A DNA stretch of 50,509 bases from positions 1 to 50,509 of the forward strand of contig CAZGJX010000015.1 of NCBI GenBank assembly GCA_964525635.1, read 5' to 3'. Positions 6,873-27,138 of this stretch are shown one piece after another. The stretch's first letter is position 1. The number at the start of each line of letters is the position of its first letter. A program made the position numbers and the translations under genes. The DNA comes from an uncultured archaeon (GTDB lineage: Archaea; Asgardarchaeota; Lokiarchaeia; Sigyniarchaeales; SOKP01). The notes below the pieces were generated by a model. The model saw only the letters and a program-made list of their open reading frames with translations. It did not search any database and had not been told where the DNA came from.

Positions 6873-8282
6873 CTATCTAACTAACAAATCTTTTATCATA
6901 TCAGGAATTCTCCTTAAAAGACTAATATTAACCAAGCGTGTAAAATGAAATTTAAAACCATGCATTTTAAGAACTCTTTCAATACCCTGCCAAGGATTCT
7001 TTGAAAATAAGGTTTCTTTATACGCTTTAGATAAGTAATATTTTAACTCTTCTGATGATAGGTGTGGATACTTAATGACAGGATCTGACCAATTAAATTT
7101 GCTCCAATCTTTAGTGAATAATAAATTATCTTTTAAAACCTGCTCCATTACTTTTGTACCCGGAAATGGAGTTAATAAGGAAAAAGTGGGAAGATCGATA
7201 TCTAAAGATTTTGCAATTTTAATAGAAGACTCCAAATCCTCCTTTTTATCTTCAATATTAGCTCCTAAAATAATGTTACCCTGAACAAAATAACCTATAG
7301 CATGTAAGATTTTTAATGCTGATTGGATCTCAGCAAATTTAATTTGCTTATTTAATTTTTCTAATGTTCTATTAGAGAAACTTTCAAATCCCAAAAATAG
7401 ATGAATAAATCCTGCATCAGCCATTTTTTTAAATACTTCGGGATATTTTACAATCATATCAACACGAGCTTGTGTCATAAAATATTTATTAATTCTGTTT
7501 TTTATGATAGCATCACAAAATTCCATTACAAATTTCTTATTTACCATGAAATTATCATCAACTATAAAAATAAGACTAGCTCGATTTTTAATTTCTTTAG
7601 ACTTTAACTCTTTAATTATACTCTTGATTGTACGCTGTCGATATTTTTTTCTAAAGAAATGATGGATACAACAAAAATTACAAGAATATGGACAACCCCG
7701 ACTTGTTTCAATGCAATCGACTGGAAGAGCAAAATAATTATATTTTTTTTTTGCTATTTTTGATCTATAATAACGAGTTGGTATTAGAGTTTTTTTAAAA
7801 TCTATTAATTCACGGTCAAGATTATGGATAATTTTACCATTCTGTTTAAATGATAAACCAAGGATACCAATAGGATTATTTTTTTTAATTAATTCTCGAA
7901 ATGTTTTTTCACCTTCCCCTCTCACAATAAAATCGATTGAATGATATTCTAGTGTTTCATCAGGAACTAAAGTTGGATGCCATCCTCCAACAACAGTTTT
8001 AATATTATAACTTTTGACAATATCAGCGATTTTATAAACATTATATATCTGGGAACTAAATTTGCAACTAATTCCTACATAGTCAGGTTTAAAATCTTCG
8101 ATTATTTTTTTAAATTCTTTAGAGTTCCGTGCTTCTATCCGTTTATCGATTATTTTCACTACTGCTATATCATTTATATATGCGGCAATAGATTCTAATC
8201 CTAATGGAGGAGCAAGAATACTATATTGAGGTACAAATTTATTTACATTAGGACAGTCTGGCTCTACGAGTAAGACACGCAA
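6873..8282 (-). CDS. Cobalamin-dependent (class B) radical SAM protein, BchE/HpnP-like
   Basis: 'APPLGLESIAA', 'VVGGWHPT', 'RGEGE', 'ETSRGCPYSCNFC', 'VDDNF', 'LTPFPGT'. Confidence 0.9.
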   Translation of the reverse strand: MRVLLVEPDCPNVNKFVPQYSILAPPLGLESIAAYINDIAVVKIIDKRIEARNSKEFKKIIEDFKPDYVGISCKFSSQIYNVYKIADIVKSYNIKTVVGGWHPTLVPDETLEYHSIDFIVRGEGEKTFRELIKKNNPIGILGLSFKQNGKIIHNLDRELIDFKKTLIPTRYYRSKIAKKKYNYFALPVDCIETSRGCPYSCNFCCIHHFFRKKYRQRTIKSIIKELKSKEIKNRASLIFIVDDNFMVNKKFVMEFCDAIIKNRINKYFMTQARVDMIVKYPEVFKKMADAGFIHLFLGFESFSNRTLEKLNKQIKFAEIQSALKILHAIGYFVQGNIILGANIEDKKEDLESSIKIAKSLDIDLPTFSLLTPFPGTKVMEQVLKDNLLFTKDWSKFNWSDPVIKYPHLSSEELKYYLSKAYKETLFSKNPWQGIERVLKMHGFKFHFTRLVNISLLRRIPDMIKDLLVR

Positions 8283-8671: not shown

Positions 8672-10078
8672 ATTAATTTTCTTGTAGCAACAAATTGGGA
8701 TTTTAATCTCATAGAAGAGTTAGAAAAATATCCAGTAAATAATTTATATGGTGTCGCAGACTACTCTATTGTGGGTGGGGGGCGTCCTTCTTTTCTATTG
8801 CCAAAAATAACAGAAGAGAAAATACAAGAATATATAAGAGAAGTACATAAGAAAAAAATGAAATTTTCTTATTTATTAAATGCTCCTTGTATGAATAATA
8901 TGGAATATGACTCTCATTATCATAGAGTACTTATTGATTATATTCAATGGATTAGTGATATAAGGGCAGATGGTGTAATTGTAACCATTCCCTTTCTAAT
9001 ACAACTTATAAAAGAACAATTTCCTAATTTAAAAATCCGGGTATCTACAATAGCTCATGTTAACAGTGTAAATAGAGCAAAATTTTATGAAATGTTAGGA
9101 GCAGATGAGATAACTCCAGATGTAATGATTAATCGTGATTTTAAAACATTGGAAAGAATGCAAAAAACTGTTAAGTGCAAGATTGTTCTACTTCTCACTG
9201 ACGGATGTTTATATCAATGTCCTTTTAGATATTATCATTATAATATATTAGGACATGCATCCCAAGCACATCAACAATTTGAACGTAATTATATAGACAC
9301 TTGTATTTTAAATTGTAGTATTATTAAATTCTCTGATCCAGCAGAAGTACTTAAGGCACGATGGGTACGACCTGAGGATTTGGTTCACTATGAATCGATT
9401 GGAATAAATGACTTTAAAATAGCTGGACGTCGAATGTCAACTCCATGGATTGTTAGAGCTGTAAAGGCATTTTCCTCCCGAAAATATGAAGGCAATCTCA
9501 TTGATATAATACAAGGTTTTTCTATGTCGCATGGTGGTTTAGAACAAAAAGACCCCAACATTAAAATAAGTGAAACTCTTGGTAAAGAAGTAAAATCTAA
9601 ATTAATCATTGACAATACAAAATTAGATGGCTTTATAGATTTCTTTAAAAAGCAGAATTGTATAGCAATGTGTAATGATTGTAATTATTGTAATGAATGG
9701 GCAAAAAAAGCTGTTTATTTAGATAAAGAAGAATCTGCATCTTATGTAAAATCAATCAAGAATTATCTTGATGATATTATAACGAGTAGAGAATTTGGGC
9801 TTAATGTAGGGGAATCTGTAAAAAAAAGTAAAATTGGATTAAAATGGAATCTTAAAATTGAAGATATTTTTAACCAGCTAATAAAATTATCGCCTCCTCA
9901 ATTTCAAGGTATTGCAAAAGTGGCGATTTCATCATTAGCCGAAGAAAAAGCAAAAAAAAGAGGATCGCAAGAAGTTAATAATCAAGATATTTTAGAAGCA
10001 TTTATTGAAGGTACTCCTGGACCTTTTCAAGCCGAAATGAGGGAGGGTCTTAAAAAACATGGGCTTATAAAAGAGTAA
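8672..10078 (+). CDS. Peptidase U32-family Fe-S protein (UbiU/TrhP-like putative hydroxylase) with C-terminal DUF2621/PCP_red-like domain
   Basis: 'GGGRP', 'YLLNAPC', 'VSTIAHVNS', 'NRDF', 'GCLYQCPF', 'WVRPEDL', 'FKIAGRR', C-terminal CxxxCxxCxxC. Frame is open upstream of GTG 8771 to ATT 8672 ('INFLVATNWD', matching 'FRLSLACNW' of paralog 20932). Confidence 0.85.
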   Translation: MNFLVATNWDFNLIEELEKYPVNNLYGVADYSIVGGGRPSFLLPKITEEKIQEYIREVHKKKMKFSYLLNAPCMNNMEYDSHYHRVLIDYIQWISDIRADGVIVTIPFLIQLIKEQFPNLKIRVSTIAHVNSVNRAKFYEMLGADEITPDVMINRDFKTLERMQKTVKCKIVLLLTDGCLYQCPFRYYHYNILGHASQAHQQFERNYIDTCILNCSIIKFSDPAEVLKARWVRPEDLVHYESIGINDFKIAGRRMSTPWIVRAVKAFSSRKYEGNLIDIIQGFSMSHGGLEQKDPNIKISETLGKEVKSKLIIDNTKLDGFIDFFKKQNCIAMCNDCNYCNEWAKKAVYLDKEESASYVKSIKNYLDDIITSREFGLNVGESVKKSKIGLKWNLKIEDIFNQLIKLSPPQFQGIAKVAISSLAEEKAKKRGSQEVNNQDILEAFIEGTPGPFQAEMREGLKKHGLIKE

Positions 10079-10285: not shown

Positions 10286-11017
10286 ATGAAACATAGGAGC
10301 AGACATGAAAAATTAAAGATATATACAATATTGGTTATTACTATTTTATATCTTCCATTTACATTATTTCCTATGTTTTTAAAGGATATTCCCTTTTTCT
10401 CTTCATTAGTTAATAATTATATTATTGCTGGTAGATCATTTTTTATTTCTGATTTACCCTGTATTAATATATTATGGTTTTTGCCAGAAGAATGTCGTAT
10501 CACTTATTTTAGTATAGGGCATCTAATTGATATCTTCATTATAATAAATATTGTTCCTTGTGTTGAAACTACTATTTATCATTATATTGTAAAAGTATGT
10601 AATGAAGAAGAAACTAAAGAATTAAGTTATATGGATATTTATGTTAACAAATCTAGAGAGAAATTTAATTTATTATATTTTAATTTAAATTATGAAATTG
10701 ATATAGAAAATGATCATTCATATGAATCTCATAATATATATATTAAAAATTATCAAAATAACAAGCTTAGACTAAAGGAGTCAAATAATGACTACAATTA
10801 TCAAAAAATAAATGAATATATTCATACCAAAAATCAAAAGAGATTATTTAATAAAATATTTAATTCCAAATTAAAAACTACTTTTAAATTGTTTAATAAT
10901 TCTTTTAATCACTCTTTTTCTAAAAATACTCTGGTATTCCAGAAGAAAAATTATAATCAATATCCCAAAATTAAAACTATTTCTTATAAATATTCTCAAT
11001 GGGAGGGAAAAACATGA
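10286..11017 (+). CDS. Hypothetical protein, N-terminal hydrophobic segments, Asn/Lys-rich C-terminus
   Basis: 243-codon open frame in extremely AT-rich DNA; no recognisable motif. Confidence 0.45.
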   Translation: MKHRSRHEKLKIYTILVITILYLPFTLFPMFLKDIPFFSSLVNNYIIAGRSFFISDLPCINILWFLPEECRITYFSIGHLIDIFIIINIVPCVETTIYHYIVKVCNEEETKELSYMDIYVNKSREKFNLLYFNLNYEIDIENDHSYESHNIYIKNYQNNKLRLKESNNDYNYQKINEYIHTKNQKRLFNKIFNSKLKTTFKLFNNSFNHSFSKNTLVFQKKNYNQYPKIKTISYKYSQWEGKT

Positions 11018-11127: not shown

Positions 11128-12525
11128 ATGGAATGGAAAGAAGAAATTGAAAATTTATATGAAATAATCACAGATCAGACTCCTGAAGCGTTCCGTTCAT
11201 CAGTCAAAACTATGCTTCGTGAAGCATCTGAAAAAACAGCACGTCTTAGGAATTCTGGATTTGTGAGTAGAGATGATTTACTATCTGCTCTATTTGAAAT
11301 AACTCCTGAAGCATTTCAACCTACAGTTGTTGAAGATTTAAAAAAGATTGGTATTGATACTAATCGGTATATTAAATTGTCAGAAATTAGAAAAAAATAT
11401 TCACGAACATGGGATGAAATTAGTGGAGCATTTTTACCTGGAGTATATCATTTTACCATATATCTAACTGATCGATGCAACCAAAATTGTCTTCATTGTG
11501 CTGCTGCGGTAATGGAGAAACGTCCTGAATTACCCCCGGAAACTTGGATTGAAATTATTGAGGATCTTGAACAAAGCTTACGAAAACGTGGTCGTCGAGG
11601 ATGTTATATATGGTTTGGAGGAGAACCTACTATTCGTAAAGATCTTAAAGATTTAATAAAATATTGCGGTGAAAAGGGCTATTATCAAGCACTTGCAACT
11701 AATGGAATTTTGTTTAATGAAGAACTGGCGAAATTATGTGCAGATGTTAAGATGAGCCATGTTTTTATAAGTTATGATAGTACGGATCCTAAACGGGCTG
11801 CAAAAATTAGAGGACATCCAAAAGCACAAGAAGCGGCAGAAAAAGCCATAAATTTGGCTTCAAAATATGGGCTTTTTATCATTGGTAATGTAACCGCACA
11901 AAAAGAGAACTTCGATGAATTAGAAACCTTACAAAAATATTTTGAATCTAAGGGCGTAATTCCCTTTTACAGACCCCTAATCAAACAACGTTCGGCGGAT
12001 TTAAATTGGGAAGAAATCGGCTTAACTATTGATGAATATCGACAATTCTATGATTTTAAATATAAAAACATTATAGAGACTATCAGAAAAGGAGAAGCAA
12101 CTTCTCTTAATAAATTCTATACATGGGATATGGTACCATTCATGGAGTGTCCTATAAATGATGAGGAAAGGACTGCGATTGAATGGGGTACAGGATGCCA
12201 AGCCTGCCGCTCAATTTCCGGGATTGATACCAATGGAGATGTATTCCCTTGCGATTATCCCTCTGAATTAATCTTAGGCAACATTCTTGAGCAAAGTTGG
12301 GATGAGATTATGGAAACCGAAATGTTCAAAGCTATTAGAGATAGAAAAATAAAAGGGAAATGTGCTACTTGTCATCACCTTGACATGTGTGGTGGTGGTT
12401 GTCGGGTGCATGCTGAGAATGAAACTGGTGATTTTTTAGCGGCTCTCCCGTTTTGTTGGCATCAGAATGATCATAAACATGAAAAAAAAATAACAGAAAA
12501 AAAAGTGATTGAATTACTTGAATAA
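11128..12525 (+). CDS. Radical SAM/SPASM protein (PqqE/AhbC-like) with N-terminal DUF2621/PCP_red-like domain
   Basis: 'CNQNCLHC', 'GGEP', 'ATNG'; SPASM 'CQACR..GDVFPC..CATCHHLDMCGGGCR..CW'. Confidence 0.9.
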   Translation: MEWKEEIENLYEIITDQTPEAFRSSVKTMLREASEKTARLRNSGFVSRDDLLSALFEITPEAFQPTVVEDLKKIGIDTNRYIKLSEIRKKYSRTWDEISGAFLPGVYHFTIYLTDRCNQNCLHCAAAVMEKRPELPPETWIEIIEDLEQSLRKRGRRGCYIWFGGEPTIRKDLKDLIKYCGEKGYYQALATNGILFNEELAKLCADVKMSHVFISYDSTDPKRAAKIRGHPKAQEAAEKAINLASKYGLFIIGNVTAQKENFDELETLQKYFESKGVIPFYRPLIKQRSADLNWEEIGLTIDEYRQFYDFKYKNIIETIRKGEATSLNKFYTWDMVPFMECPINDEERTAIEWGTGCQACRSISGIDTNGDVFPCDYPSELILGNILEQSWDEIMETEMFKAIRDRKIKGKCATCHHLDMCGGGCRVHAENETGDFLAALPFCWHQNDHKHEKKITEKKVIELLE

Positions 12526-12565
12526 TTGAGTAATTTAATTAAAATAGATTGAAGGTTTGATATAT

Positions 12566-13966
12566 ATGGAATGGGAAAAGAAAACTGAAGAATTATTTGC
12601 GAGAATTGTAGAGAAAATGCCAGAAGGATTTCGTCCTTCAGTAAAACCATTGATTATAGAAGCAGCTGAAAAAAGATGCGTTGAGCGAAACGAATCTTAT
12701 ATTAATGAATCAGATGTAATTACAGGAATTTTTGATATTATTCCTGAAGCATTTAAATCTATAATGGTTGAAGATTTAAAATCTCTGAGTATTGATGTTG
12801 AACGATATATTGAGCTTAAGGAAATCAGAGATCGACTTAAATTATCATGGGAAAAATTGGAAAAAGCATTTCATCCGGGTAATATTCATTTTGCGATGTA
12901 TATTACCGATAGATGTAATATGAAGTGTATACATTGTGCCGCAGATGATCAAATACCTCGACAGGAGTTATCAAAAGAGCAATGGTGCCAGATAATGGAT
13001 AATATAGAATCTGGACTTAGATCCCAGGGTAGACATGCATGTTTCATTTGGTTTGGGGGAGAACCAACTCTACGAGAAGATATTGGGGATTTAATGAGCC
13101 ATTGCAAAGAAAAAGGATATTATCATGCTATTATTACTAATGGCGTTGAATTTGATGATAAATTCGCTAAAATGTGCAAAGAAAATGATTTAAGTCACGT
13201 ATTTGTAAGTTTTGACAGTGCCAATCCTAAGAAAAATGATCAATTACGCGGATATCCAAATTCATTAGAATACACCAAAAAAGCTATAGATAGTTGTTTG
13301 AAATATGGATTATTTGTATGTGCTTCTATTACTATTATGAAACAGAATATTGATGAATTGGAAGAACTTAATAATTTATCGTTAAAATGGGGAGCTCAAC
13401 CTTTTTTTAGACCAGTTGTTAAACAAAATCGCGCTGCAGAATATTGGGATGAAATTGGTTTGAATAAAGAAGAATATAAGAGGTTATATGATTATAAATA
13501 TAAACATGCTATTCAAAAAATTAGGCAAGGTGAAGCAGGGATCCTACCGGCTTATGAAATATATGAGATGATGCCCTTTATGAATTGCTTAAGAAATGAT
13601 AAGGAAATAACAGCGCTTGAATGGGGTGTAGGATGTTTAGCATGCAGAACGATGATGGGCGTTGGTGTAGATGGAACGCTATTTCCTACGGGATATCCTA
13701 CAAAATTAACTCTTGGTCATGGATTAAAGGACAAATTTGAAGATATATTAAATTCACAACTCTATAAAGATATTCGTGACAGAAAAAAAATTAAAGGAAA
13801 ATGCGCATCTTGTCATCATCTGAAATATTGCGGAGGGGGGTGTCGCGTCACTGCAGAATTTATAACTGGAGATTTTTTTGGTTCATTTCCTTTTTGTTGG
13901 CATGAAAATGACCATGAACATGAAGTTGAGACTAATAAAAAGAAGGAAATTGAATTACTTGAATGA
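12566..13966 (+). CDS. Radical SAM/SPASM protein, tandem paralog of 11128, with N-terminal DUF2621/PCP_red-like domain
   Basis: 'CNMKCIHC', 'WFGGEPT', 'CASCHHLKYCGGGCR'; starts 'MEWEKK' like 'MEWKEE'. Confidence 0.9.
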   Translation: MEWEKKTEELFARIVEKMPEGFRPSVKPLIIEAAEKRCVERNESYINESDVITGIFDIIPEAFKSIMVEDLKSLSIDVERYIELKEIRDRLKLSWEKLEKAFHPGNIHFAMYITDRCNMKCIHCAADDQIPRQELSKEQWCQIMDNIESGLRSQGRHACFIWFGGEPTLREDIGDLMSHCKEKGYYHAIITNGVEFDDKFAKMCKENDLSHVFVSFDSANPKKNDQLRGYPNSLEYTKKAIDSCLKYGLFVCASITIMKQNIDELEELNNLSLKWGAQPFFRPVVKQNRAAEYWDEIGLNKEEYKRLYDYKYKHAIQKIRQGEAGILPAYEIYEMMPFMNCLRNDKEITALEWGVGCLACRTMMGVGVDGTLFPTGYPTKLTLGHGLKDKFEDILNSQLYKDIRDRKKIKGKCASCHHLKYCGGGCRVTAEFITGDFFGSFPFCWHENDHEHEVETNKKKEIELLE

Positions 13967-14000
13967 TAAAGGAGATTGCTAAAGCATAGGGATGATAATA

Positions 14001-15416
14001 ATGCGAGTATTAATAATATCTGGAAGTCGAGAGATAGTACATGTAATGGTTTCACCCATAGGTGAAGCTTATCTAGCATCATATCTTCAATCACAAGGAC
14101 ATGAAGTTTTATTATTAGATCTAACTCTAAGTAATAATTTTAGAAATGATATTATAAAAGCTATTGATAATTTCAATCCTGAAGTGATAGGTCTTTCTAT
14201 TCGTAATATAGATTCAACAACATACCCTGGAAATTTATTTTTTTATTTACCTTTTAAAAATATTTTTAATTATATAAAAGAAAATATAGAACCTGAAATA
14301 CCCCTAATCTTAGGTGGGGCTGGGTTTTCAATATTCTCAGAAGAAATACTTAGAGATTTAAATCATGATATTGGAATCGTTGGAGAAGGAGAATATGCTT
14401 TTAATGAATTATTAAAATATATTGAAAAAGATAAAGATCCTCGAAAAATAGATAGAGGTATATGTTTTATAGATAAAAAAGGGAGATATCATCAAAAACC
14501 AACATGGCATATTAATAATTTAGATGATTTACCAAATCCTACAAGAGAATTGATGGATAATAATAATTATCTAATTGATCCAATAGATAAGGAAGGTAAT
14601 TTTTGGGGGAATATTCAAACTAAGCGTGGTTGCTCGAAAAACTGCATTTATTGTAGTTATCGATATATTGAAGGCCCTAAAGTTCGATATCGATCCCCAG
14701 AAAAAATAGCTGAAGAACTAGATTTAATGGTAAATAATTTTGGAATCAAAAATGTTTTCATTGTAGATAGTCTGCTCAATTTAAATTATAATCACTTAAA
14801 AAATACTTGTCATGAAATTATTAACCATAAAATTGATTTTAATTGGGGAGCTAATTATGCTCCAAGTAGTCAATATTTAGATTTATTACCCCTTATGAAA
14901 GAAAGTGGTGCAACTCATCTAGCAACGGGTATGGAATCCTTATCTGAAGATATATTAAAAAATATGAATAAAGATAGAATACCTAATGAGTCAATTCTAA
15001 CTTCTGAAAAGTGTATTGATCTAGAAATTGAACAATTAATCCATATAATTGTTGGAGGTCCTGGAGAAACTTCTGAAACAGTTAGAGCTTCTTTCGATCG
15101 ATTAGAAACTATTAGAAATTATAGAGGAAATATATGGCAAGGAGATGGAGATGTAATTATTTTCTTGGGAATGAGAATATATCCTCATACGCCTCTTCAG
15201 AAAATTGCTGAGAAAGATAAGGTGATTTCTAAAGGACAAAATTTACTTAAACCAACATTTTACATTTCTCCACAAATTAAAGAAGTAGATCTTTTTAGTT
15301 TAGTAAGAGAATATTGTGAAGTAAATCCAAGATGGATGGCTCCAGGATTAGGCTTAAATAATCCAGATGGCTTTGACGAAATGAGTCAAATCCAGTTTGC
15401 TCTATATCAAAAATAA
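14001..15416 (+). CDS. Cobalamin-dependent radical SAM protein, TsrM-like / lipid-biosynthesis B12-rSAM type (putative C-methyltransferase)
   Basis: 'LLDLT', 'IGLSIRNID', 'LGGAGFSIF', 'IQTKRGCSKNCIYC', 'GGPGET', 'GMRIYPHTPL', 'PTFYISP'. Confidence 0.82.
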   Translation: MRVLIISGSREIVHVMVSPIGEAYLASYLQSQGHEVLLLDLTLSNNFRNDIIKAIDNFNPEVIGLSIRNIDSTTYPGNLFFYLPFKNIFNYIKENIEPEIPLILGGAGFSIFSEEILRDLNHDIGIVGEGEYAFNELLKYIEKDKDPRKIDRGICFIDKKGRYHQKPTWHINNLDDLPNPTRELMDNNNYLIDPIDKEGNFWGNIQTKRGCSKNCIYCSYRYIEGPKVRYRSPEKIAEELDLMVNNFGIKNVFIVDSLLNLNYNHLKNTCHEIINHKIDFNWGANYAPSSQYLDLLPLMKESGATHLATGMESLSEDILKNMNKDRIPNESILTSEKCIDLEIEQLIHIIVGGPGETSETVRASFDRLETIRNYRGNIWQGDGDVIIFLGMRIYPHTPLQKIAEKDKVISKGQNLLKPTFYISPQIKEVDLFSLVREYCEVNPRWMAPGLGLNNPDGFDEMSQIQFALYQK

Positions 15417-15471
15417 AAATAAAAAACAAAAAAAAAAAACATTAAAAAATAGTAAAAATGAGGGAATTTTT

Positions 15472-16974
15472 ATGAGTAAAAAAGCAAGAAGCGGATTACC
15501 ATTTGGTAAAGTTACTCCGTTAGAAATTATAGAGAAAATTGGAAAAGATGGATTATCTGGAGGAATTGAAGATGTCTGTCTCTTTCCTACATATAGTTGT
15601 AATCTTAATTGTTATATGTGTCATGTACAACATGTACGCGATAAGGATAACAATTATATATCAATGGATGATTGGAAGGCAGCTTTTAAAAATCTAAATG
15701 TATCTAAAATGTTTCACCTAGGGGGAGAACCTTTTGTAAGAGAAGATATGATGGATTTAATTGAATTTTTTGATTCCAAAGGGATTAATCAAATTCTTTC
15801 CACCAATGGTCAAAATATTACTGAGTCAACTGCTAAAAGGCTAGCTGCATTGAAGAATTTAGCTTGTATACAAGTATCTCTTAATGGTACAGAAGAAATT
15901 GATGGAAAAATAAGAGGATCTCCTCATTCATATAGAAGAACTGTAGAGGGTATAAAACTATTGAAAAAAGCTGGTATACAAACATGGATTCATGCCGTTA
16001 TTTTAAATGAAAATATCAATGATCTAGTAAATATAGTGAAACTTGGTACAGAATTAAAGGTGGATATGATTAATTATCTTTTTGGTCAGGTAATGTCTGA
16101 GCAAGATGCAGAAGAAACAAGAGCTTCTATTAAAAAGTGGACAGGTGAAGATGTAAATGTTGGAGGATATATAGGAGAAATAAATTATTCTGAAGAAGAA
16201 TTAGTGAATAGTATTAACGCTGTAAAAGAAGAAGCGAAGAAAACGGGAATTCAAGTAATGTTTTTCCCTAGAATTTTTGGAGAGCATCCAGAAATATATT
16301 GGCGAGGTACTTTACTTGAACAAGAGAGGCCTATTTGTCAAATGACATTAATGCCCCCCCTCACACCTATAATTGGTCCTGAAGGGGATGTTGTTGCGTG
16401 TTGTATTATTGATAAGAGTTTTGGCAATATTAAAGAAAAAAGTCTTGAAGAAATTTGGGATTCTGAGACCGTTCGTAATTTTAGGAAAGGATTGATTAAT
16501 GATAAATTAATGGCAGTATGTAAACGATGTCCAAGTGGAGATTTAATAAAGGTTGATGCAAAGAAAGATACATCCTTATCGAATAAAGAAGATTGGAACT
16601 CTTATTTATCATTATTAACTAAAGAACTTAATAATTTATCTGAGTTACAACCGATATTAGAAAAAGTTTCTCCTATTATATTTCAATATCAAATTACTGA
16701 TCAACCAAGTTTCAATTATTGGCATTACTTTAAAAAAGATGGTGTTAGTTTGGGTTTAGGTGAAATTGATGATGATGATGTCTCAAAATTAATCCATAAA
16801 ACTGATTTTGAGACATTAAAGAGTGTAAATGCTGGTATAAACAATCCAATCCAAGCTACGATGGAGGGAACTTATGAAGTTACTGGAGACATGACTAAAT
16901 TAATGGCTTGTGCTCCACTTATTCCAGTAACAGCAAAAGCTCATAATGTTGTAATTAAAGATTTTTTAAAATAA
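15472..16974 (+). CDS. Radical SAM/twitch-type protein fused to C-terminal SCP2 lipid-binding domain
   Basis: 'CNLNCYMC', 'LGGEP', 'STNG'; 'C...GDVVACC..GNIKEKSLEEIW...CKRC'; C-term 'DFETLKSVNAGINNPIQATMEGTYEVTGDMTKLM' (SCP2 pattern). Confidence 0.85.
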   Translation: MSKKARSGLPFGKVTPLEIIEKIGKDGLSGGIEDVCLFPTYSCNLNCYMCHVQHVRDKDNNYISMDDWKAAFKNLNVSKMFHLGGEPFVREDMMDLIEFFDSKGINQILSTNGQNITESTAKRLAALKNLACIQVSLNGTEEIDGKIRGSPHSYRRTVEGIKLLKKAGIQTWIHAVILNENINDLVNIVKLGTELKVDMINYLFGQVMSEQDAEETRASIKKWTGEDVNVGGYIGEINYSEEELVNSINAVKEEAKKTGIQVMFFPRIFGEHPEIYWRGTLLEQERPICQMTLMPPLTPIIGPEGDVVACCIIDKSFGNIKEKSLEEIWDSETVRNFRKGLINDKLMAVCKRCPSGDLIKVDAKKDTSLSNKEDWNSYLSLLTKELNNLSELQPILEKVSPIIFQYQITDQPSFNYWHYFKKDGVSLGLGEIDDDDVSKLIHKTDFETLKSVNAGINNPIQATMEGTYEVTGDMTKLMACAPLIPVTAKAHNVVIKDFLK

Positions 16975-17005
16975 AAAGGAGAAATAAAAAAAAGAGCTAT
17001 AAATT

Positions 17006-18514
17006 ATGAATGAAAAACAAGTTGGATGTGACGTATCTCTACGAGAAGCAATGCCCCTTGGAAAGGATATACCATTAAATGTAATAAAGCAAATAATTGA
17101 AGATGGTCTTTCTGGGGAATTTAGTGATGTATGCTTTTATGCAAGTTTCAACTGTAATTTAAATTGTTATATGTGCCTTATAAAACATATGAAAGGTCGA
17201 AAAATAACTCCCATGTCTATGGAGCAAATAAAGGAGGGATTTAAAGATGCTAAAGTCTTATTTCACCTTGGAGGAGAACCATGGGTTATGAGTAATATGA
17301 TGGAAATGATAGAATATTTCGATGCTAATGGTGTTAATCAAATAATGTCCACAAATGGCACTAAAATTACAAAAGAAATCGCTGAGAAATTAGCTGGATT
17401 AAAACATTTTGTTAATATACAAGTCTCATTGAACGCATCAAATGGAATAGATGGCAAAATTAGGGGATGGCCAAAATCTTTCGAAAAAACTGTTGAGGGT
17501 ATAAAGATTCTTGTTGATGCAGGCTTATCTACATGGATACATTGCACAATTGTAAATGAAAATATTAACGATTTAGCAAATGTAGTTAAACTTGGTGCAG
17601 AGCTAGGAGTTAAAGCAGTCAATTTCATCTTTGCACATATAGTTAGTGAGGAAGAAATTAAGGCTTCTAAAGAGCTAATGAAGAAATGGATTGGAGAAGA
17701 AGTTGAAATAGGTGGATATGTGGGAGAATTAACATATTCTGAAGAAGAATTGATAAACAGTATTAATGCAGCAAAAGAAGAAGGAAAAAAACATGGAATT
17801 ACTGTGATGTTCTTTTCAAAGTTATTTGGTGATAAGCCTGAAATATATTGGCGAGGAACGTTATTAAAGCAAGAACGACCGATTTGCCAATTAACTTTAA
17901 TGCCCCCAATGACACCTAATATTGGACCAGATGGTTCAGTATATAACTGCCCATATATAGTCAAAAGCTTTGGAAACATTACTGAAATGCCCCTTAAAGA
18001 GATTTGGGATTCTGATTCAATTCGTGCTTTTCGGAAAGGAATGATAAAGGACAAGTTATTACCTATATGTAGACGTTGCCCATGTAGTGATATGGTTGAT
18101 TTATCTTTATCCAAAGAACATGAATTAACAGATATAGTAAAATGGAAGATATATCTTGAAAGATTAACTAAAGAATTGAATAATATGTCTGAAGTTCCAC
18201 CAATTTTGAATAGCATTGAACCTACTATTTTCCAATATCACCTTAATGATCATCCAGAGTTGAATTTTTGGCATGCCTTTGATAAAAATGGTATTCGGAT
18301 AGGAATGGGTGAAAATACACAGGATAGTGACTTTATTAAGCTTATCCATAAAGCTGATTTTGAGATTGTGAGAAAGGTAAATTCTGGCGAACAGAATCCT
18401 GTCCAAGCAACTATGGCAGGACTTTATATAGTTGATGGAGATATGGCTAAATTAATGGCTTGTGCTCCAATTTTACCTTTGCAAGTAAAAGCTCATGAAA
18501 AAGTAATAAAATAA
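17006..18514 (+). CDS. Radical SAM/twitch-SCP2 fusion, tandem paralog of 15472
   Basis: 'CNLNCYMC'; near-identical 'PEIYWRGTLL.QERPICQ.TLMPP'; SCP2 'NPVQATMAGLYIVDGDMAKLM'. Confidence 0.85.
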   Translation: MNEKQVGCDVSLREAMPLGKDIPLNVIKQIIEDGLSGEFSDVCFYASFNCNLNCYMCLIKHMKGRKITPMSMEQIKEGFKDAKVLFHLGGEPWVMSNMMEMIEYFDANGVNQIMSTNGTKITKEIAEKLAGLKHFVNIQVSLNASNGIDGKIRGWPKSFEKTVEGIKILVDAGLSTWIHCTIVNENINDLANVVKLGAELGVKAVNFIFAHIVSEEEIKASKELMKKWIGEEVEIGGYVGELTYSEEELINSINAAKEEGKKHGITVMFFSKLFGDKPEIYWRGTLLKQERPICQLTLMPPMTPNIGPDGSVYNCPYIVKSFGNITEMPLKEIWDSDSIRAFRKGMIKDKLLPICRRCPCSDMVDLSLSKEHELTDIVKWKIYLERLTKELNNMSEVPPILNSIEPTIFQYHLNDHPELNFWHAFDKNGIRIGMGENTQDSDFIKLIHKADFEIVRKVNSGEQNPVQATMAGLYIVDGDMAKLMACAPILPLQVKAHEKVIK

Positions 18515-18571
18515 TTAATTAAATAATATAAAAAAGAGAAAATAAAATATAAGTTAAGAGAGAAAATCAAA

Positions 18572-19744
18572 ATGAAATGGAAATCTGAAATTAAACAACT
18601 TTTTGAGAATGTGGTCTCAAATATTCCTGAAATGGTAAGACCAGCTGTAAAACCTACACTTTTTGAAGCTGCAGAAAAAAAATGTATGGAGAGAAATGGA
18701 AAAGAAGTAGCTGAAGTAGATTTAGTAGTAGCGTTGTTTGAAGTGACACCACCAACTTTTCAACCAACTATGATTGAAGATCTAAAAAAAGTTGGGGTTG
18801 AATATGATAAATACCTAGCAAAAGTGGAATCTAATTTTAAGTGTAATACTGATCTTAATCAGATGATAAAGGATATATCAACGATTTGTGATGTTACTGG
18901 AGTAAAATGTGATAATGAAGCAATCTGGAAAGCTTTCAATGCTTATGAAAAATTTTTCAAAGGAGCTCCATTATCAATTAGAACGACGACTAAACCCGTT
19001 GAAAAAAGGGATGTAGCAGTAAGATATGTAGAATTTTTTGTACCTCATTATCCAGATCCTTATACAACAGCTATCAATGAAGGATTAATTAAGAAGGATG
19101 GACACGCTATCCATAAGATGATAATAGAGGTAATAAACACGTTTGACATAATGGGATATGGTGTAGATGTAGATGCGAGTAATGGATTATCAAAGATTTG
19201 GCCATTTATAGTACCTGGATCAATTGATCCAATCTATTCAATGAAGTCATACCCAAAAAGTATGAAAAAATATCAAGAATACTTTAATAAGCATGGACTA
19301 ACAGCTTTTAGTTTATTTGCATTTGATTTCCTTCATAATACAGTGAACATCTATTTCATGCTTAAAAAACCATCCAAATCTACTTATGAAAATTGTATTG
19401 CTCTTGTAGAGGATTTAGGATTTAAACCCGACTCCAAAGAGGTTATGGAAGCTTGTTGTGAAGCTGCCCATCTAAATTATACATTTAATTGGGATACAGA
19501 AAAAATCGAGCGTGTATGTTTTGGGATAACATGTCAAGATGCTAAAAAGATTCCAGTACATCTACATCCATTGATAGAAGAATTTGTTGAAAAAACACCA
19601 CTCCAAAGTGATTCAAATAAATTTATCTGGGGAGTAACCTTCTCCCAAAACGGTCGCTATTATAAGATTGAAAACGATTATAATGGAACAATGGTCGATT
19701 TCTTAGAAATGGGTTGTAAAGCGGGTCTTGATAAATTTAACTAA
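18572..19744 (+). CDS. Soluble ABBA aromatic prenyltransferase (NphB/CloQ, PTase_Orf2-like) with N-terminal DUF2621/PCP_red-like domain
   Basis: Co-linear with remembered NphB/CloQ motifs: 'DPYTTAINEGL', 'YGVDVDASNGLSKIWPF', 'FNKHGL', 'FDFLHNTVNIYF', 'LVEDLGF', 'YTFNWDTEKIERVCFG', 'WGVTFSQNGRYYKIENDY'. Confidence 0.87.
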   Translation: MKWKSEIKQLFENVVSNIPEMVRPAVKPTLFEAAEKKCMERNGKEVAEVDLVVALFEVTPPTFQPTMIEDLKKVGVEYDKYLAKVESNFKCNTDLNQMIKDISTICDVTGVKCDNEAIWKAFNAYEKFFKGAPLSIRTTTKPVEKRDVAVRYVEFFVPHYPDPYTTAINEGLIKKDGHAIHKMIIEVINTFDIMGYGVDVDASNGLSKIWPFIVPGSIDPIYSMKSYPKSMKKYQEYFNKHGLTAFSLFAFDFLHNTVNIYFMLKKPSKSTYENCIALVEDLGFKPDSKEVMEACCEAAHLNYTFNWDTEKIERVCFGITCQDAKKIPVHLHPLIEEFVEKTPLQSDSNKFIWGVTFSQNGRYYKIENDYNGTMVDFLEMGCKAGLDKFN

Positions 19745-19756
19745 TTTTTTTTTTTT
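19745..19756 (+). terminator. Oligo-T tract, possible archaeal terminator inside the cluster
   Basis: T run immediately after the TAA of the prenyltransferase. Confidence 0.35.
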
Positions 19757-19787
19757 AATTTTAAAAATAAATAAAGTGTATCTTAAA

Positions 19788-20939
19788 ATGCAGATAATAA
19801 TCGATGGAGACTATAATAAAGAATTAATTTCTCAAATTAAAAGGAAAGATTTACCAGTTTCACATATTATTGTTCATGTTCCTCAAAATCCAATTGGAAA
19901 TAGTTCAATTTTTCTGCCAGAAATCCTTCCTTCTCTAAAGGAATTTAGAGATTATACTAAGATTATTCAAGATAATGGAATAATTCCCATAGCAGGTATT
20001 GATTCAACATGTCAAGGAAATTTGGAAGCCCATGCTAAACAAAATAAAGCAATTAATATATTATTTGAAAACCTACATGAATTAGAATACTCTAATTACC
20101 TAATATCATCCCCAAATAATGCAGCATTTATAAATGCAAATTTTCCTGAAGATAAAATTTACTTATCTTATTCTCAATATATCACATCATTAAATCGTGC
20201 AAAAATTTTTTTTGAATTGGGAGTAGACAATATTATAATTCACCCTGACATAATTAGGAATTTTAATATATTAAAGAATTTCTTGAAATTAAAGCAAAAT
20301 CTAAATAATAATGAAAAAATTGATTATATTCTTCCATTAAATCTTGGGTGCAATTGGGGATGTATTCATTGGTATGAACATCATAATCTTCAAAGTCATC
20401 GAACAATAAAGTCATCTATTTTACCAAATCAAAATAATATTTCTGACATTGAGGATGAGTTTGATTATCCTATCCTTGATTGTTGGAGGAAGCGTCTTAA
20501 ACAACCTTCTGAAATTCTTAAAGCAGGATGGATATCCCCATTTAATATTCAATTATATCATGATTTGGGGTATGAAAAATTCGTACTTTTTACCAGTAGA
20601 TTTTCTACGGAGAAGATATTGAATATCATTAAATCATATATTGATAAATTACATATGGATGATTTTAAAGAATTTCTGAATATTCCTCAACCTTATGGGG
20701 ATTATTGGTCAGGAGAAGAAATTCATAATTCAATGATCTTTCTTGATCCAAATAATATCAGAGAATTTTGCGATAATTTCCCCTATAATACTCATTATCC
20801 ATTTGAGAAGCAAATTAATGAATATTGTAATAAATATATTGATAAATTTAATAATAAACACATTAAAGAACGAGAAGAAATCCTCAAAATAATAATGGAA
20901 AAGAAAGAAAAACTATATAAAGGTGTATTTAATGGCTGA
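19788..20939 (+). CDS. Divergent U32-family protein (possibly non-catalytic partner)
   Basis: Aligns with the other U32s ('ITSLNRAK', 'IRNF', 'LGCNWGC', 'EILKAGWISP') but lacks GxGRP and FKIxGRR; ATG 19788 preferred. Confidence 0.72.
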   Translation: MQIIIDGDYNKELISQIKRKDLPVSHIIVHVPQNPIGNSSIFLPEILPSLKEFRDYTKIIQDNGIIPIAGIDSTCQGNLEAHAKQNKAINILFENLHELEYSNYLISSPNNAAFINANFPEDKIYLSYSQYITSLNRAKIFFELGVDNIIIHPDIIRNFNILKNFLKLKQNLNNNEKIDYILPLNLGCNWGCIHWYEHHNLQSHRTIKSSILPNQNNISDIEDEFDYPILDCWRKRLKQPSEILKAGWISPFNIQLYHDLGYEKFVLFTSRFSTEKILNIIKSYIDKLHMDDFKEFLNIPQPYGDYWSGEEIHNSMIFLDPNNIREFCDNFPYNTHYPFEKQINEYCNKYIDKFNNKHIKEREEILKIIMEKKEKLYKGVFNG

Positions 20940-22992
20940 AAAATTTCGCTTATCATTAGCATGTAATTGGAAGATTGACTTATTGAATCTAATAGATCTG
21001 GATCAATCGTTAAAAGATAATATTCATGATTTATATGGTACTTATGATTCTAGTTTTACTGGATCAGGGAGACCCTTTTTTTTAATGGCAAAGAGAGAGA
21101 GATTAGAGGTAGAAACATACATAAATAAAGTTCATGATTTAGGATTGAAATTCACTTGGTTATGGAATGGTATGTGTCAAGGATATTACAAATTTAATTC
21201 TGAACATCAAACTAAAGCCCTAGAGGAATTAGATTGGTTAGGAGATTTAAGTGTAGAATATTTAACAATAACAGATCCTTACCTTGCCGAGTTTGCAAAA
21301 AATCATAAACCAAAATTAAAATTGAAAGTTTCAGTTATTTCTGAAGTAAATTCATTATCACGTGCTTTAGATTGGCAAGAGATTATTGGTGATGAAGGTG
21401 TTTTAACATTATCTATAATGATAAATCGTAATTTTCCTCTCTTAGAAGAGATTAGGAATAGTGTAAAATGTGATATTGAACTACTTACAAATGATTGTTG
21501 CCTGAATGATTGTCCTTTTAGATTTTTTCATTATACAGAATGCTCACACGCTAGCCAAACTCATGATATACTAGAAGGCTATTATAATGATTGGTCAACA
21601 ATTGCTTGTCAAAATCAAAAATGTTTCAATCCAGAACAGATAATTATGTCTAAATGGATTCAACCATCAGATCTGGATAAGTATATTAATATTGGAATAA
21701 ATTATTTTAAAATTTCAGGAAGGAGATATGGAACTGATTGGTTATATAAGGCATTAAAAGCATATAGTAAAAAATCATTTAATGGGAATCTCGGTGATAT
21801 TTTTAATGGGTATTCTTTTGTTTCAGATCCTTTAATACTAGCTGGAAATCAATTTTCTGAATTTTCTATTAAACAAGAAAAAATGGAAGTAGATGCTGAT
21901 AATCAAAGTATAATGTTAAGTGTTCCAGATTTTAATGCAGTGTTAAAAGGTGATGAATTAAATGATTTTATATCTAATATACCTTTCCAAGGAACTAAAT
22001 GTACTGAAATTTGTGGTATTAAATGTCACTACTGTAATGATTATGCAAAGAAAGCTTATTATGTTCCTCCTGATAAATTATCAGAGTCATATAGAAATTA
22101 TATGGCATTTCTTTATGATTATCTAAATTTAGGAGAAATGTTTCTTTCAAAAGAAGAAAGAACTCTTAAAATTCCAATTAGAGAGATAGAATCAGATACT
22201 TATTTTGGAATCGCTTGGTTATCTGAAGCAGAAACTTTTTTAGAGGAGGTTATGATTATAATTCCTGAATCAATGCAACTTGCCGCTAAAAAAGGTATTG
22301 GATTCACAGCAGAACGAACTGCAGAAAAACAAGGTTTAAACCATATTGATCTAAATTTACTTATCTCTATACTTATTCAATTAGTACCTCAACCTTTTAA
22401 ACATGATCTTCTCGATTTCTTGGTAGAAAAAGACATCGATTTATCACATTTTATCAATGAAGAAGATATAGAATACATGAAATCTTTACCATATGGTACT
22501 GATTTAATGGCTCAAAAAGCAAAACAAAAAAGATTAGTAGAGCCTAATTCAAATTTAAATATAAATAATTTAAATATACAAAAAAATAAGGAAGTGAAAT
22601 TAAATATGGATACAAAAGAAGAATGGGAGGCGTACCTTACACGCTTTATGAAAGCCTATAATGAATTACCAGATTTATCTTCATTATTAAAACCTATCTC
22701 CCCTTTGATATTTCAGTACAATCTTTCAGATAAACCTGAAATGAATTATTGGCAATTTGTTGAAGAGGATAAAATGAGATGGGGAATGGGAAATTATGAT
22801 GGAAATGATGCTCCCAAGATTATCCACAAAACTGACTTTGAGACATTGATAAAAGTTAATTCTGGTGAATCAGATCCAATTCAAGCTACTATGGCAGGTA
22901 ATTATACTGTTGAAGGAGATGTAACTAAACTTATGGCATGTGCTGCTTTACTCCCTCTTAACGCAAAAGCCCATAATAAGGCTATAGAATGA
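20932..22992 (+). CDS. U32-family Fe-S protein + DUF2621/PCP_red-like domain + SCP2 domain (triple fusion)
   Basis: 'GSGRP', 'CLNDCPF', 'FKISGRR', 'CTEICGIKCHYC'; middle 'AWLSEAETFLEE...IPESMQLAAKK...VPQPFKHDL'; C-term 'DPIQATMAGNYTVEGDVTKLM'. Overlaps the upstream stop. Confidence 0.85.
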   Translation: MAEKFRLSLACNWKIDLLNLIDLDQSLKDNIHDLYGTYDSSFTGSGRPFFLMAKRERLEVETYINKVHDLGLKFTWLWNGMCQGYYKFNSEHQTKALEELDWLGDLSVEYLTITDPYLAEFAKNHKPKLKLKVSVISEVNSLSRALDWQEIIGDEGVLTLSIMINRNFPLLEEIRNSVKCDIELLTNDCCLNDCPFRFFHYTECSHASQTHDILEGYYNDWSTIACQNQKCFNPEQIIMSKWIQPSDLDKYINIGINYFKISGRRYGTDWLYKALKAYSKKSFNGNLGDIFNGYSFVSDPLILAGNQFSEFSIKQEKMEVDADNQSIMLSVPDFNAVLKGDELNDFISNIPFQGTKCTEICGIKCHYCNDYAKKAYYVPPDKLSESYRNYMAFLYDYLNLGEMFLSKEERTLKIPIREIESDTYFGIAWLSEAETFLEEVMIIIPESMQLAAKKGIGFTAERTAEKQGLNHIDLNLLISILIQLVPQPFKHDLLDFLVEKDIDLSHFINEEDIEYMKSLPYGTDLMAQKAKQKRLVEPNSNLNINNLNIQKNKEVKLNMDTKEEWEAYLTRFMKAYNELPDLSSLLKPISPLIFQYNLSDKPEMNYWQFVEEDKMRWGMGNYDGNDAPKIIHKTDFETLIKVNSGESDPIQATMAGNYTVEGDVTKLMACAALLPLNAKAHNKAIE

Positions 22993-23109: not shown

Positions 23110-23940
23110 AAAATGGTCTCTATAAGAATTATATAGAGTAAAAATCTTTTTTTATTAAATAAAAAAACTATAAATAAAAATAGTGAGGATAAAAAAAATG
23201 TTTTGTCCAAGTTGTGGTGAAGAGTTAAGAGAAGATAATCAAAGATTTTGCCACACTTGTGGAATTAATCTTCTTAGTAATATAGATGGCCCTCAACAAT
23301 ATACTAAAGTTATTCAAAAAACACCAAATTCAATTTCAAAATCAAATCTAAAAAATATTGAAATAATAAAAGGTCAACAAGGACACCATATTAAAATAGA
23401 ACGAATAGGACCATATTCAAAAAAGAGTTTAGCTTATTCAATTGTGTCTTTGGGATTAACTGCTTTGGCAATTGTTTTCATTTCGACAGGATTTGTTTAC
23501 AGTTTAATACGTAATAATATCCAATTACTTATCATACCAAGAACGATATTTGTAATTTCAATTAATATTGTAGGTTTGGTTTTTGGAATTCAATCTAAAA
23601 AGAATAGTTTAAAAGCAGGACGATTTGAAGAAATAAATGCTGTAGAGAAAGTAGGGAGTGTATTATGTATTTTTGGGATAGTAGCTAATATTATTGGTAT
23701 TATAATAGGTTTTTTAATATACCCTGCATCTATGATTATCTTGAATAATAATATACAATTTATTTATTAATTTTAATATTTTAAAAAATTCTTTTTTCTT
23801 ATTTTATCAATAAAATCTAGGTTTTTTGTAAGAATCTACTTTTTAATAATAAATGGTCTATATTAAAATTATATACACTATATCTTTATTTTTATTAAAA
23901 AAAAAAAAATAAATAAAATTAGTTAGGAGGAAAGAAATCT
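23110..23940 (+). repeat. Duplicated upstream regions of the two tandem zinc-ribbon genes (about 23110-23197 and 23851-23940)
   Basis: 'aaatggtctctataagaattatatagag...tttattaaa...taaataaaaatagtgagg' vs 'aaatggtctatattaaaattatatacac...tttattaaa...taaataaaattagttagg'. Confidence 0.65.
23198..23770 (+). CDS. Zinc-ribbon membrane protein, paralog 2
   Basis: 'MFCPSCGEEL..FCHTCG', 'YSKKSLAYSI', 'EKVGSV', 3 TM. Confidence 0.8.
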   Translation: MFCPSCGEELREDNQRFCHTCGINLLSNIDGPQQYTKVIQKTPNSISKSNLKNIEIIKGQQGHHIKIERIGPYSKKSLAYSIVSLGLTALAIVFISTGFVYSLIRNNIQLLIIPRTIFVISINIVGLVFGIQSKKNSLKAGRFEEINAVEKVGSVLCIFGIVANIIGIIIGFLIYPASMIILNNNIQFIY

Positions 23941-26757: not shown

Positions 26758-27138
26758 GTGATAAAAATGATAATGAAAATTAAACTTAATATTATCAATA
26801 GTAAATCAATTTTTCCAGAAATTAATACTGGAGAAATTCTGCCAGTTTATATAATTAGTATTGTGTTTTTCATAATTTTTATAAATTTAATATTAGCATA
26901 TTTTATAGCAATTAGAATTTTAAGTAGAAAAAAAGTGATAGAAATTCCAATAGTGGAAAAAGAAAGTTCTTTTAATCATACTAAGGATTCAATCAATAAA
27001 CATAATAAATTTATTTATTATTATTGTCAGTTTTGTGGAGGAAAATTAGAAAGGAGCGCTGAATATTGTTCAAAATGTAATTCAACTTTAAGAAGAGGGA
27101 ATATAAAAATATATAAAAAGTATTTTTTGATAAAATAG
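26758..27138 (+). CDS. Single-TM protein with C-terminal zinc ribbon
   Basis: TM then 'YCQFCG...YCSKC'. Confidence 0.65.
   Translation: MIKMIMKIKLNIINSKSIFPEINTGEILPVYIISIVFFIIFINLILAYFIAIRILSRKKVIEIPIVEKESSFNHTKDSINKHNKFIYYYCQFCGGKLERSAEYCSKCNSTLRRGNIKIYKKYFLIK

Follow-up and report, generated by a model that had tools for sequence, protein, structure and literature searches.

An ABBA aromatic prenyltransferase with an extra N-terminal module in a conserved operon of Asgard archaea

Introduction

What does a soluble aromatic prenyltransferase do in an archaeon? Archaea usually prenylate rings and glycerol by membrane UbiA-type enzymes, and to our knowledge soluble ABBA prenyltransferases have been characterized only from bacterial and fungal secondary metabolism. 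The question is raised by a contig of 50,509 nucleotides from an uncultured Asgard archaeon (CAZGJX010000015.1, assembly GCA_964525635.1; this whole stretch is called the window below), in which an open reading frame (ORF) at positions 18572 to 19744 had been predicted from the letters alone to encode an ABBA aromatic prenyltransferase with an additional N-terminal domain. Within the literature library that was searched, we found nothing that links ABBA prenyltransferases to Asgard archaea, or that describes the operon or the module reported here. The fold and the chemistry of the enzyme are known; its domain fusion, its host lineage and its pathway context are new. In the window, an intact ABBA enzyme is encoded together with lipid-carrier domains and up to ten predicted iron-sulfur enzymes, in an operon that is conserved among Asgard archaea. 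This points to novel anaerobic chemistry, acting on a prenylated compound, in those archaea that are closest to eukaryotes. The presence of the DUF2621-like module on these enzymes gives this Pfam domain a testable role, in enzyme assembly or in substrate hand-over. Its small size, its solubility and its predicted independence of metal make the prenyltransferase directly assayable, and it could serve as a biocatalyst.

Results

The gene encodes an intact soluble ABBA prenyltransferase

The gene (18572..19744, + strand) starts with an ATG codon and encodes a protein of 390 amino acids (aa), in which a DUF2621-like module is fused to an ABBA, or PT-barrel, aromatic prenyltransferase. The catalytic domain (residues 93–385; 18848..19726, + strand) was compared with the Pfam family of these enzymes, PF11468 (PTase_Orf2), and matches it with an expect value (E) of 5.5e-55 and a score of 187 bits, against a cutoff of 22. 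The match covers residues 94–378 and profile positions 2–283 of 287, which is nearly the full length, and it is far above chance. The PT-barrel motifs that the original prediction had placed at residues 93–385 or so were all located in the sequence, in the order it gave: DPY at 162–164, GVDVD..GLSKIW at 197–210, VNIYF at 258–262, TFNWDT/KIERVCF at 304–317 and YYK at 363–365. The two stretches that it had singled out for their basic residues are present as well, as SIRTTTK at 135–141 and AVRYVE at 149–154.

The ABBA fold is a central barrel of ten antiparallel strands, arranged as five alpha-alpha-beta-beta repeats. An AlphaFold2 model made from 50 homologs (mean predicted local distance difference test score 93, predicted template modeling score 0.87) consists of ten beta-strands alternating with helices; it is a prediction and not a solved structure. 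In a Foldseek search of this model against the PDB, the top ranks were held by ABBA prenyltransferases only. The best match was AmbP3 (5y7c_A; E 2.9e-28, template modeling (TM) score by target 0.92, root-mean-square deviation (rmsd) 2.2 Å over 290 columns), followed by AmbP1, FamD1 and EpzP at TM scores of 0.84–0.91 and by NphB and CloQ at about 0.8 (range over the ABBA set, 0.78–0.92). Dimethylallyltryptophan synthase-type (DMATS) and cyanobactin enzymes reached E values of only about 1e-6, with TM scores of 0.4–0.5 for the cyanobactin enzymes. The ten-stranded model superposes on NphB, CloQ and EpzP, the comparison that the original prediction had proposed, and together with the PF11468 match and the Foldseek matches this bears out its assignment of the protein to the NphB/CloQ-type aromatic prenyltransferases. 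We conclude that the gene codes for a soluble and intact PT-barrel enzyme of the Orf2/NphB/CloQ family of ABBA prenyltransferases (PF11468). With 252 representatives at E ≤ 0.001, most of them from bacteria, this family is a small one. The scan of NCBIfam gave no family for the protein; the NCBI pipeline already names its homologs “aromatic prenyltransferase”. Full-length orthologs align with it from M1 to the end, at 52–78% identity.

With the UbiA superfamily (UbiA, MenA and the archaeal digeranylgeranylglyceryl phosphate synthase) the enzyme has the overall chemistry in common, i.e., prenyl transfer to rings or glycerol. The UbiA enzymes, however, have an unrelated fold, are integral to the membrane and depend on Mg and Asp-rich motifs. 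In the sequence of the prenyltransferase we found neither the (N/D)DxxD motif of UbiA and trans-prenyl enzymes nor a hydrophobic membrane segment, the highest 19-residue Kyte-Doolittle mean being 1.12.

Among characterized enzymes, the cyanobacterial hapalindole/ambiguine enzymes AmbP1, AmbP3 and FamD1 (PDB 5yk9, 5y4g and 5ynt) are the best matches in sequence (E 1.6e-37 to 2.4e-34) as well as in fold (TM by target 0.89–0.92, rmsd about 2.2 Å). They are 25–29% identical to the prenyltransferase and lack the module, and their substrates are indole isonitriles of an aerobic cyanobacterium. EpzP and PpzP, which act on dihydrophenazine-1-carboxylate in Streptomyces (PDB 4ee6-4ee8), come next (E 1.3e-29, TM 0.84–0.87) and have an arginine pair in common with the archaeal enzyme; they differ from it in sequence (23–24% identity), in length (about 300 aa, no module), and in belonging to actinobacterial secondary metabolism with dimethylallyl diphosphate as the donor. 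The ten-stranded barrel is also found in NphB/Orf2 of Streptomyces sp. CL190 (PDB 1zb6), the founding member of PF11468 (E 1.1e-22, TM 0.80), which differs in identity (19–21%), in being Mg-dependent, in having serines at the positions of R137 and R151, and in the absence of the module. The 4-hydroxyphenylpyruvate dimethylallyltransferases CloQ and NovQ (PDB 2xlq) have the fold in common and are Mg-independent. The label “CloQ-like”, which had at first been given to the pyrophosphate site, holds at the level of the family and not below it: CloQ is the most distant of the solved relatives (E 1e-10), and AmbP1/AmbP3/FamD1 and EpzP are the nearest.

The active site carries the two-arginine signature of Mg-independent enzymes

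To identify the residues of the active site, we took our alignments to AmbP1, AmbP3, EpzP and an NphB variant together with the residue lists of PMC6632223. R137, R151, K208 and W210 align with R46, R60, K117 and W119 of AmbP1, and N259, Y261, R314, Y363 and K365 with its N168, Y170, R223, Y276 and K278; G318 stands where AmbP1 has Y227. Across 25 Asgard orthologs and paralogs, R137, R151, K208, W210, N259, Y261, R314 and K365 are invariant, and the position of Y363 holds Y, F or W. One could suppose that the protein is a noncatalytic scaffold or a substrate-binding paralog, given that there are three paralogs in one genome. The invariance of the diphosphate-site residues in the orthologs and paralogs argues against this, and we consider such a role exceedingly improbable. 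We have little doubt that the protein is a real, catalytically competent prenyltransferase.

In the Mg-independent subgroup of ABBA enzymes (CloQ, EpzP, DzmP type), a pair of arginines binds the alpha-phosphate. The corresponding two-arginine signature of the archaeal enzyme (18980..19024, + strand) is formed by R137 in SIRTTTK (codon 18980–18982) and R151 in AVRYVE (codon 19022–19024), which correspond in the alignments to the paired arginines of EpzP and of AmbP1. The spacing of R137 and R151 is 14 residues, one residue being inserted relative to EpzP. Two arginines 13 residues apart (51 and 64 in DzmP) are the mark of Mg-independent ABBA enzymes, and NphB carries serines (Ser51 and Ser64) at these positions (PMC3871700). 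The Mg sites of AmbP1 (N41/E63/D65 and D172/T173/E209) are not kept, their equivalents being A132/E154/F156 and M263/L264/H300. The diphosphate-binding site of the enzyme is thus complete and, by its two arginines, of the Mg-independent type. Its Mg independence, at which the original prediction had hinted on the basis of the same basic residues, is supported at the level of sequence, where the R137/R151 pair fits the published rule.

The N-terminal module is a portable unit

The characterized ABBA enzymes are single-domain proteins of about 300 aa. The archaeal protein departs from this architecture by an extra module at residues 1–88 (18572..18835, + strand), which is DUF2621/PCP_red-like and predicted to form five helices (residues 5–16, 23–40, 48–58, 61–73 and 78–84). 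An N-terminal appendage of some 85 residues, missing from characterized members, had been noted from the start; we place its length at about 88 residues and found it in none of 13 distinct solved relatives (304–335 aa), which align with the query only from residue 93–126 onward.

To find further copies, we built a hidden Markov model (HMM) of the module solely from prenyltransferase N-termini and ran it over the ORFs of the 4.45 Mb genome. It matches exactly 10 ORFs (E 1e-39 to 6e-9), namely the 3 prenyltransferase paralogs, 4 radical S-adenosylmethionine (rSAM) enzymes with a SPASM domain, 1 U32-family protein and 2 fusions of U32, module and SCP2. The module is N-terminal on the rSAM/SPASM enzymes, C-terminal on the U32 protein, and internal in the U32-module-SCP2 fusions. 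All 10 ORFs lie either in the gene cluster of the window or in a second cluster of the same genome, on contig C76. The modules align with clear homology, W3, P19 and P60 being invariant.

As to the family of the module, Pfam DUF2621 (PF11084) matches 18 of 19 aligned modules, with a best E value of 4.4e-6 and with every score under the Pfam cutoff (21 bits for the module of the prenyltransferase, cutoff 27.7). PCP_red (PF08369), a domain of protochlorophyllide reductase subunit B, matches 4 of the 19, likewise under its curated cutoff. In a shape search of the ESM Atlas, matches to the module had TM scores of 0.77–0.92 overall and consisted of free DUF2621 proteins, U32-plus-DUF2621 proteins of Bacillota and a glyoxalase-DUF2621 family; the DUF2621 proteins gave TM scores of 0.81–0.87 at an rmsd of 1.0–1.6 Å. 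We regard the assignment as DUF2621/PCP_red-like as weak but consistent. A Foldseek search of the isolated module against the PDB gave nothing at E ≤ 0.001. The solved structures proposed by VIA-align in its wide setting, such as the BchI lid (Z 8.3) and asr4154 (Z 5.9), are within the background of helical bundles and were rejected; the top rows were AAA+ lids, cyclins and histone folds, and no function was drawn from them. Look-alikes proposed by a language model, with a score of 0.79, serve as a lead only.

In a word-limited search of 5.8 billion proteins, close relatives of the module were fused only to PF11468, rSAM/SPASM and U32 domains. In the ESM Atlas, the fold of the module is also predicted for two protein families, one of U32 type (321 members of about 479 aa, for the most part from Bacillota) and one of glyoxalase/VOC type (121 members, from Pseudomonadota), and the DUF2621-type module therefore has more types of partner than sequence searches for close relatives show. 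Its position can change as well: a subclade of prenyltransferases (P0114, P0117, P0118 and P0119) carries it at the C-terminus. One such gene (locus L044, 10001–11209) still stands beside a U32 pair and an rSAM/SPASM gene. Enzymes with the module group together on an unrooted tree built from 127 barrels, where 8 changes of state are counted, compared to 29.5 for shuffled labels.

The module is thus an independent, portable unit that is closely tied to this set of enzymes. For its function, docking, either onto other copies of the module or onto a shared partner, and binding of a hydrophobic ligand or of the membrane are live options; most likely it serves to bring enzymes of different folds together, directly or on a partner common to them. 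A prediction of the complex between the full-length prenyltransferase and the SCP2 domain, run with no controls, scored 0.00 and speaks neither for nor against binding.

The prenyltransferase gene lies in a conserved archaeal operon

The genes around the prenyltransferase are, with one exception, on the + strand. The first is a B12-binding rSAM enzyme (5171..6676; identified by Pfam), which is conserved as the first gene of the cluster in most related loci. A second B12-binding rSAM gene lies on the opposite strand (6873..8282, − strand; Pfam) and by synteny belongs to only some of the clusters. Next come a U32-family protein with a C-terminal module (8672..10078; Peptidase_U32, E 2.3e-12; module at ORF residues 390–464, E 4e-16; the listed start is a GTG at 8771), and a small hydrophobic protein of no known family (10286..11017), which is present in most loci and is 35% identical (E 1e-16) to its positional counterpart in locus L008. 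Two rSAM/SPASM enzymes with the module follow (11128..12525, module E 1e-24; 12557..13966, module E 4e-28; both by Pfam), and then a B12-binding rSAM enzyme (13992..15416), whose best NCBIfam match, the lipid-biosynthesis type TIGR04072, scores 271 bits and is under the cutoff of 360. Immediately upstream of the prenyltransferase are two paralogous rSAM/SPASM enzymes with a C-terminal SCP2 domain (15397..16974 and 17006..18514; Pfam and SCP2 alignment).

Downstream, a divergent U32-like protein (19728..20939) overlaps the stop of the prenyltransferase gene. It has no Pfam match itself; its paralog on contig C76, which it matches with 464 bits, matches Peptidase_U32 with E 7e-5. The cluster is completed by a U32-module-SCP2 triple fusion (20923..22992; U32 and SCP2 by Pfam, module at ORF residues 439–521, E 1e-8). 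The SCP2 neighbors mentioned in the original prediction were thereby confirmed, both by Pfam and by alignment. Whether free or fused, the SCP2 domains are highly conserved, with 70% mean column identity. The SCP2 part of the triple fusion (22606–22992) is 69–80% identical to the free SCP2 proteins found 3′ of the prenyltransferase gene elsewhere, and it opens with MDTKEEWEAYL, as do the free 128-aa SCP2 proteins of other genomes, which points to fusion or fission of the SCP2 gene between lineages.

For the comparison of neighborhoods, the ORFs of 33 related archaeal loci were classified by their best match. A recurring order emerged: B12-binding rSAM, small membrane protein, two module-rSAM/SPASM genes, B12-binding rSAM, in some loci rSAM/SPASM-SCP2, then prenyltransferase, a U32/SCP2 part, and U32-module. 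The U32/SCP2 part after the prenyltransferase consists either of the divergent U32 and U32-module-SCP2 proteins or of a free 128-aa SCP2 protein. This order is seen, with variations, in about 25 of the 33 loci, those with enough flank, and in all 33 the prenyltransferase adjoins at least one gene of the cluster. A mini-cluster with the order module-rSAM/SPASM, prenyltransferase, divergent U32, U32-module-SCP2, module-rSAM/SPASM occurs on contig C76 of the same genome and at loci L033, L041 and L040/L044; a Thermoplasmata genome (L039) has a prenyltransferase, an rSAM-SCP2 and two module-rSAM genes.

The second cluster on contig C76 (locus L004, 11543–20100) is rearranged and lies beside genes for Hsp90 and catalase. 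It comprises a module-rSAM/SPASM gene, a prenyltransferase (17499–18674), a U32-like protein (16254–17405), a U32-module-SCP2 fusion (14255–16261), a further module-rSAM/SPASM gene (12715–14115) and a further prenyltransferase (11543–12718). The three prenyltransferase paralogs of the genome are 50–56% identical to one another. For the first rSAM/SPASM gene of this cluster (18691–20124, − strand), the listed TTG start at 19947 is too far downstream. The open frame begins at 20124 and has the module at residues 10–92, which puts the real start near 20100.

Taken together, the prenyltransferase gene in archaea lies in a conserved operon with module-rSAM/SPASM, B12-binding rSAM, divergent U32 and SCP2 genes. 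The module on the neighboring enzymes and the synteny over 33 loci tie the prenyltransferase to this operon, and very probably it is functionally a part of it.

The host is an archaeon

The original prediction had placed the enzyme in an archaeon, which we could substantiate. The full-length homologs at 52–78% identity come from metagenome-assembled genomes (MAGs) named Promethearchaeota (an archaeal phylum), Hermod-, Hod-, Thor- and Odinarchaeota. The window also encodes ribosomal protein L10e and WD40 and leucine-rich-repeat (LRR) proteins. The GC content is even across the prenyltransferase gene, without a break. A bacterial or chimeric contig was considered and is excluded, since the same neighborhood recurs at 33 independent loci in archaea.

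A proposed oxygen-independent pathway to a prenylated product

Based on these observations, we propose that the enzyme would ionize an isoprenyl diphosphate held by R137, R151, K208, N259, Y261, R314, Y363 and K365, and that, within the barrel, an acceptor that is electron-rich and probably aromatic would receive the carbocation; the donor may be a long one such as GGPP or GFPP, as the original prediction had suggested. We propose ionization and transfer because ionization and ring alkylation are established ABBA chemistry. The product of the transfer would be a lipophilic intermediate carried by the SCP2 domains. Without O2, this intermediate would be hydroxylated by the U32 pair, C-methylated by the B12-binding rSAM enzymes, and cross-linked or otherwise tailored by the SPASM enzymes. 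The hydroxylation step is included because of the precedent of UbiU, UbiV and UbiT: the first two are U32 proteins that hydroxylate a prenylated precursor of a quinone independently of O2, and UbiT is an SCP2 protein (PMC6747719).

The likeness to this Escherichia coli system lies in a U32 pair and SCP2 domains beside an aromatic prenyltransferase; UbiU-UbiV carry [4Fe-4S] clusters (PMC6747719). There are differences as well, in that the Ubi pathway uses the membrane prenyltransferase UbiA instead of a soluble barrel and has no counterpart of the 5–7 radical SAM enzymes. The genome has a gene for chorismate synthase, and no genes for MqnA or MqnD, of futalosine-type menaquinone synthesis, were found in it at a scored completeness of 100%. 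This combination is compatible with a noncanonical aromatic lipid pathway, rather than a demonstration of it. A UbiD-family gene is also present, which is uninformative in archaea.

On balance, we favor a pathway that needs no O2 and ends in a lipophilic product, with the prenyltransferase acting on an aromatic acceptor. That this product is a prenylated aromatic lipid, either quinone-like or a meroterpenoid, we consider evenly poised. The role of the U32 proteins as hydroxylases would follow by analogy only. Our widest proposal is a tentative one: certain Asgard archaea, and a small number of other anaerobes, might make a novel prenylated aromatic redox lipid or meroterpenoid without any O2, with the barrel replacing UbiA, SCP2 shuttling the intermediate, and a metabolon built by the module.

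Several observations weigh against the proposed pathway. The sequence of the prenyltransferase singles out no acceptor or donor, and it is just 19–29% identical to any characterized enzyme. The U32 proteins of the operon are very divergent, with partial Pfam matches and no family in NCBIfam. Although cysteine-rich (groups at 136/146/150/178/182 and 297–307, and at 183–234 and 360–371), they lack the pattern CX6CX15CX3/4C, and this absence, with their divergence, weakens the analogy with UbiU and UbiV. The distribution of the gene is patchy, with PF11468 in 19 of 301 genomes of the phylum in a GTDB-based sample (17 of 68 in the family of the window, none of 3 in its genus, and one in another family), so that the cluster is accessory and not a core trait.

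Nor is the module-plus-barrel fusion specific to archaea: it also occurs in bacteria, in Acetivibrio clariflavus (WP_014254177) and in MAGs of Deltaproteobacteria, without rSAM, U32 or SCP2 neighbors, and the module is therefore not merely a tag for this operon. The fusion gene of A. clariflavus (CP003065; L042, 10001–11716) is beside a NUDIX hydrolase gene and near AhpC/AhpF. A Deltaproteobacteria MAG (L043, 10001–12512) has tandem prenyltransferases followed by two small ORFs without known function, and in this 8.2 Mb genome only the two tandem prenyltransferases carry the module. Last, radical SAM/SPASM and B12-binding rSAM enzymes are also typical of the pathways of ribosomally synthesized and post-translationally modified peptides (RiPPs).

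The bacterial fusions that occur alone, the patchy Asgard distribution, and the small and mostly bacterial PF11468 family could be taken to mean that the enzyme is a stand-alone secondary-metabolite prenyltransferase, acquired horizontally and unrelated to its neighbors. This we judge very improbable: the prenyltransferase and its neighbors have a specific module in common, synteny extends over 33 archaeal loci, including the rearranged mini-cluster and the Thermoplasmata genome, and the stop of the gene overlaps the start of the next, with no compositional anomaly.

The radical SAM enzymes also bear on a second explanation, in which the operon carries out a RiPP-like maturation, a Tyr, Trp or other residue of a peptide being prenylated, with the module as the leader-recognition domain and U32 as the leader protease. 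Both the SPASM and the B12-binding rSAM enzymes score against many RiPP maturase families in NCBIfam, and one recognition domain repeated over several tailoring enzymes is a RiPP pattern. The RiPP recognition element (RRE, PqqD-like) is a winged-helix domain with a three-stranded sheet that binds the leader peptide; the module, however, is predicted to be all-helical, and the fold searches gave no row of PqqD or RRE type, an absence that does not amount to exclusion. It is true that cyanobactin peptides receive prenyl groups from enzymes of the ABBA fold and that LimF is a distant fold match, but the barrel groups with the small-molecule enzymes (E 1e-19 to 1e-28) and not with the cyanobactin enzymes (E 1e-6, TM 0.4–0.5). 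Moreover, no conserved small ORF that might encode a precursor peptide was found in six intergenic gaps over the 33 related loci, a search by which short peptides are hard to detect, and a peptide substrate leaves the 3–4 SCP2 lipid-carrier domains per cluster unexplained. We therefore consider RiPP maturation improbable.

A third explanation keeps the enzyme in the operon and changes the acceptor, which would not be a phenol or quinone precursor of the classical kind: the prenyl group would go onto the head group or ring of a membrane lipid of isoprenoid type, or of a cofactor such as a tetrapyrrole or a different heterocycle. It draws on the best NCBIfam rows of the SPASM enzymes, which are AhbD, NirJ and AhbC of tetrapyrrole metabolism and, more weakly, the tetraether enzyme Tes, on the B12-binding rSAM enzyme being nearest to a lipid-biosynthesis family, and on the distant likeness of the module to PCP_red. 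All of these NCBIfam matches are far under their cutoffs, however, and reflect mostly generic radical SAM similarity. A gene for a CDP-alcohol phosphatidyltransferase flanks one related cluster but is not conserved, and the characterized PF11468 enzymes use aromatic rings. We hold such an acceptor to be rather unlikely.

Other features of the window

Three proteins of about 190 aa with an N-terminal zinc ribbon (4545–5117, 23183–23770 and 23941–24513) lie on both sides of the cluster, and are not conserved beside it in two other genomes (L006 and L008). Further downstream, two ORFs without a family match are followed by a LuxE-type acyl-protein synthetase (28100–29338; whole region 26758–29338). 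On the − strand, positions 30897–34673 hold an N6/N4 DNA methylase, an ArdC-N-like protein and several small orphan ORFs, and the GC skew reverses there; this region may be a mobile or defense-related insert. At 43634–45341, a 403-aa catalytic domain of class I Glu/Gln-tRNA synthetase precedes an ORF of 181 aa that overlaps it in a different frame and has no family match; this may reflect a frameshift or a split gene. Finally, the window encodes a 1613-aa LRR protein and two more LRR proteins (35848–40689 and 45333–47038), as well as a WD40 protein (373–2232), a content that is eukaryote-like and typical of Asgard genomes.

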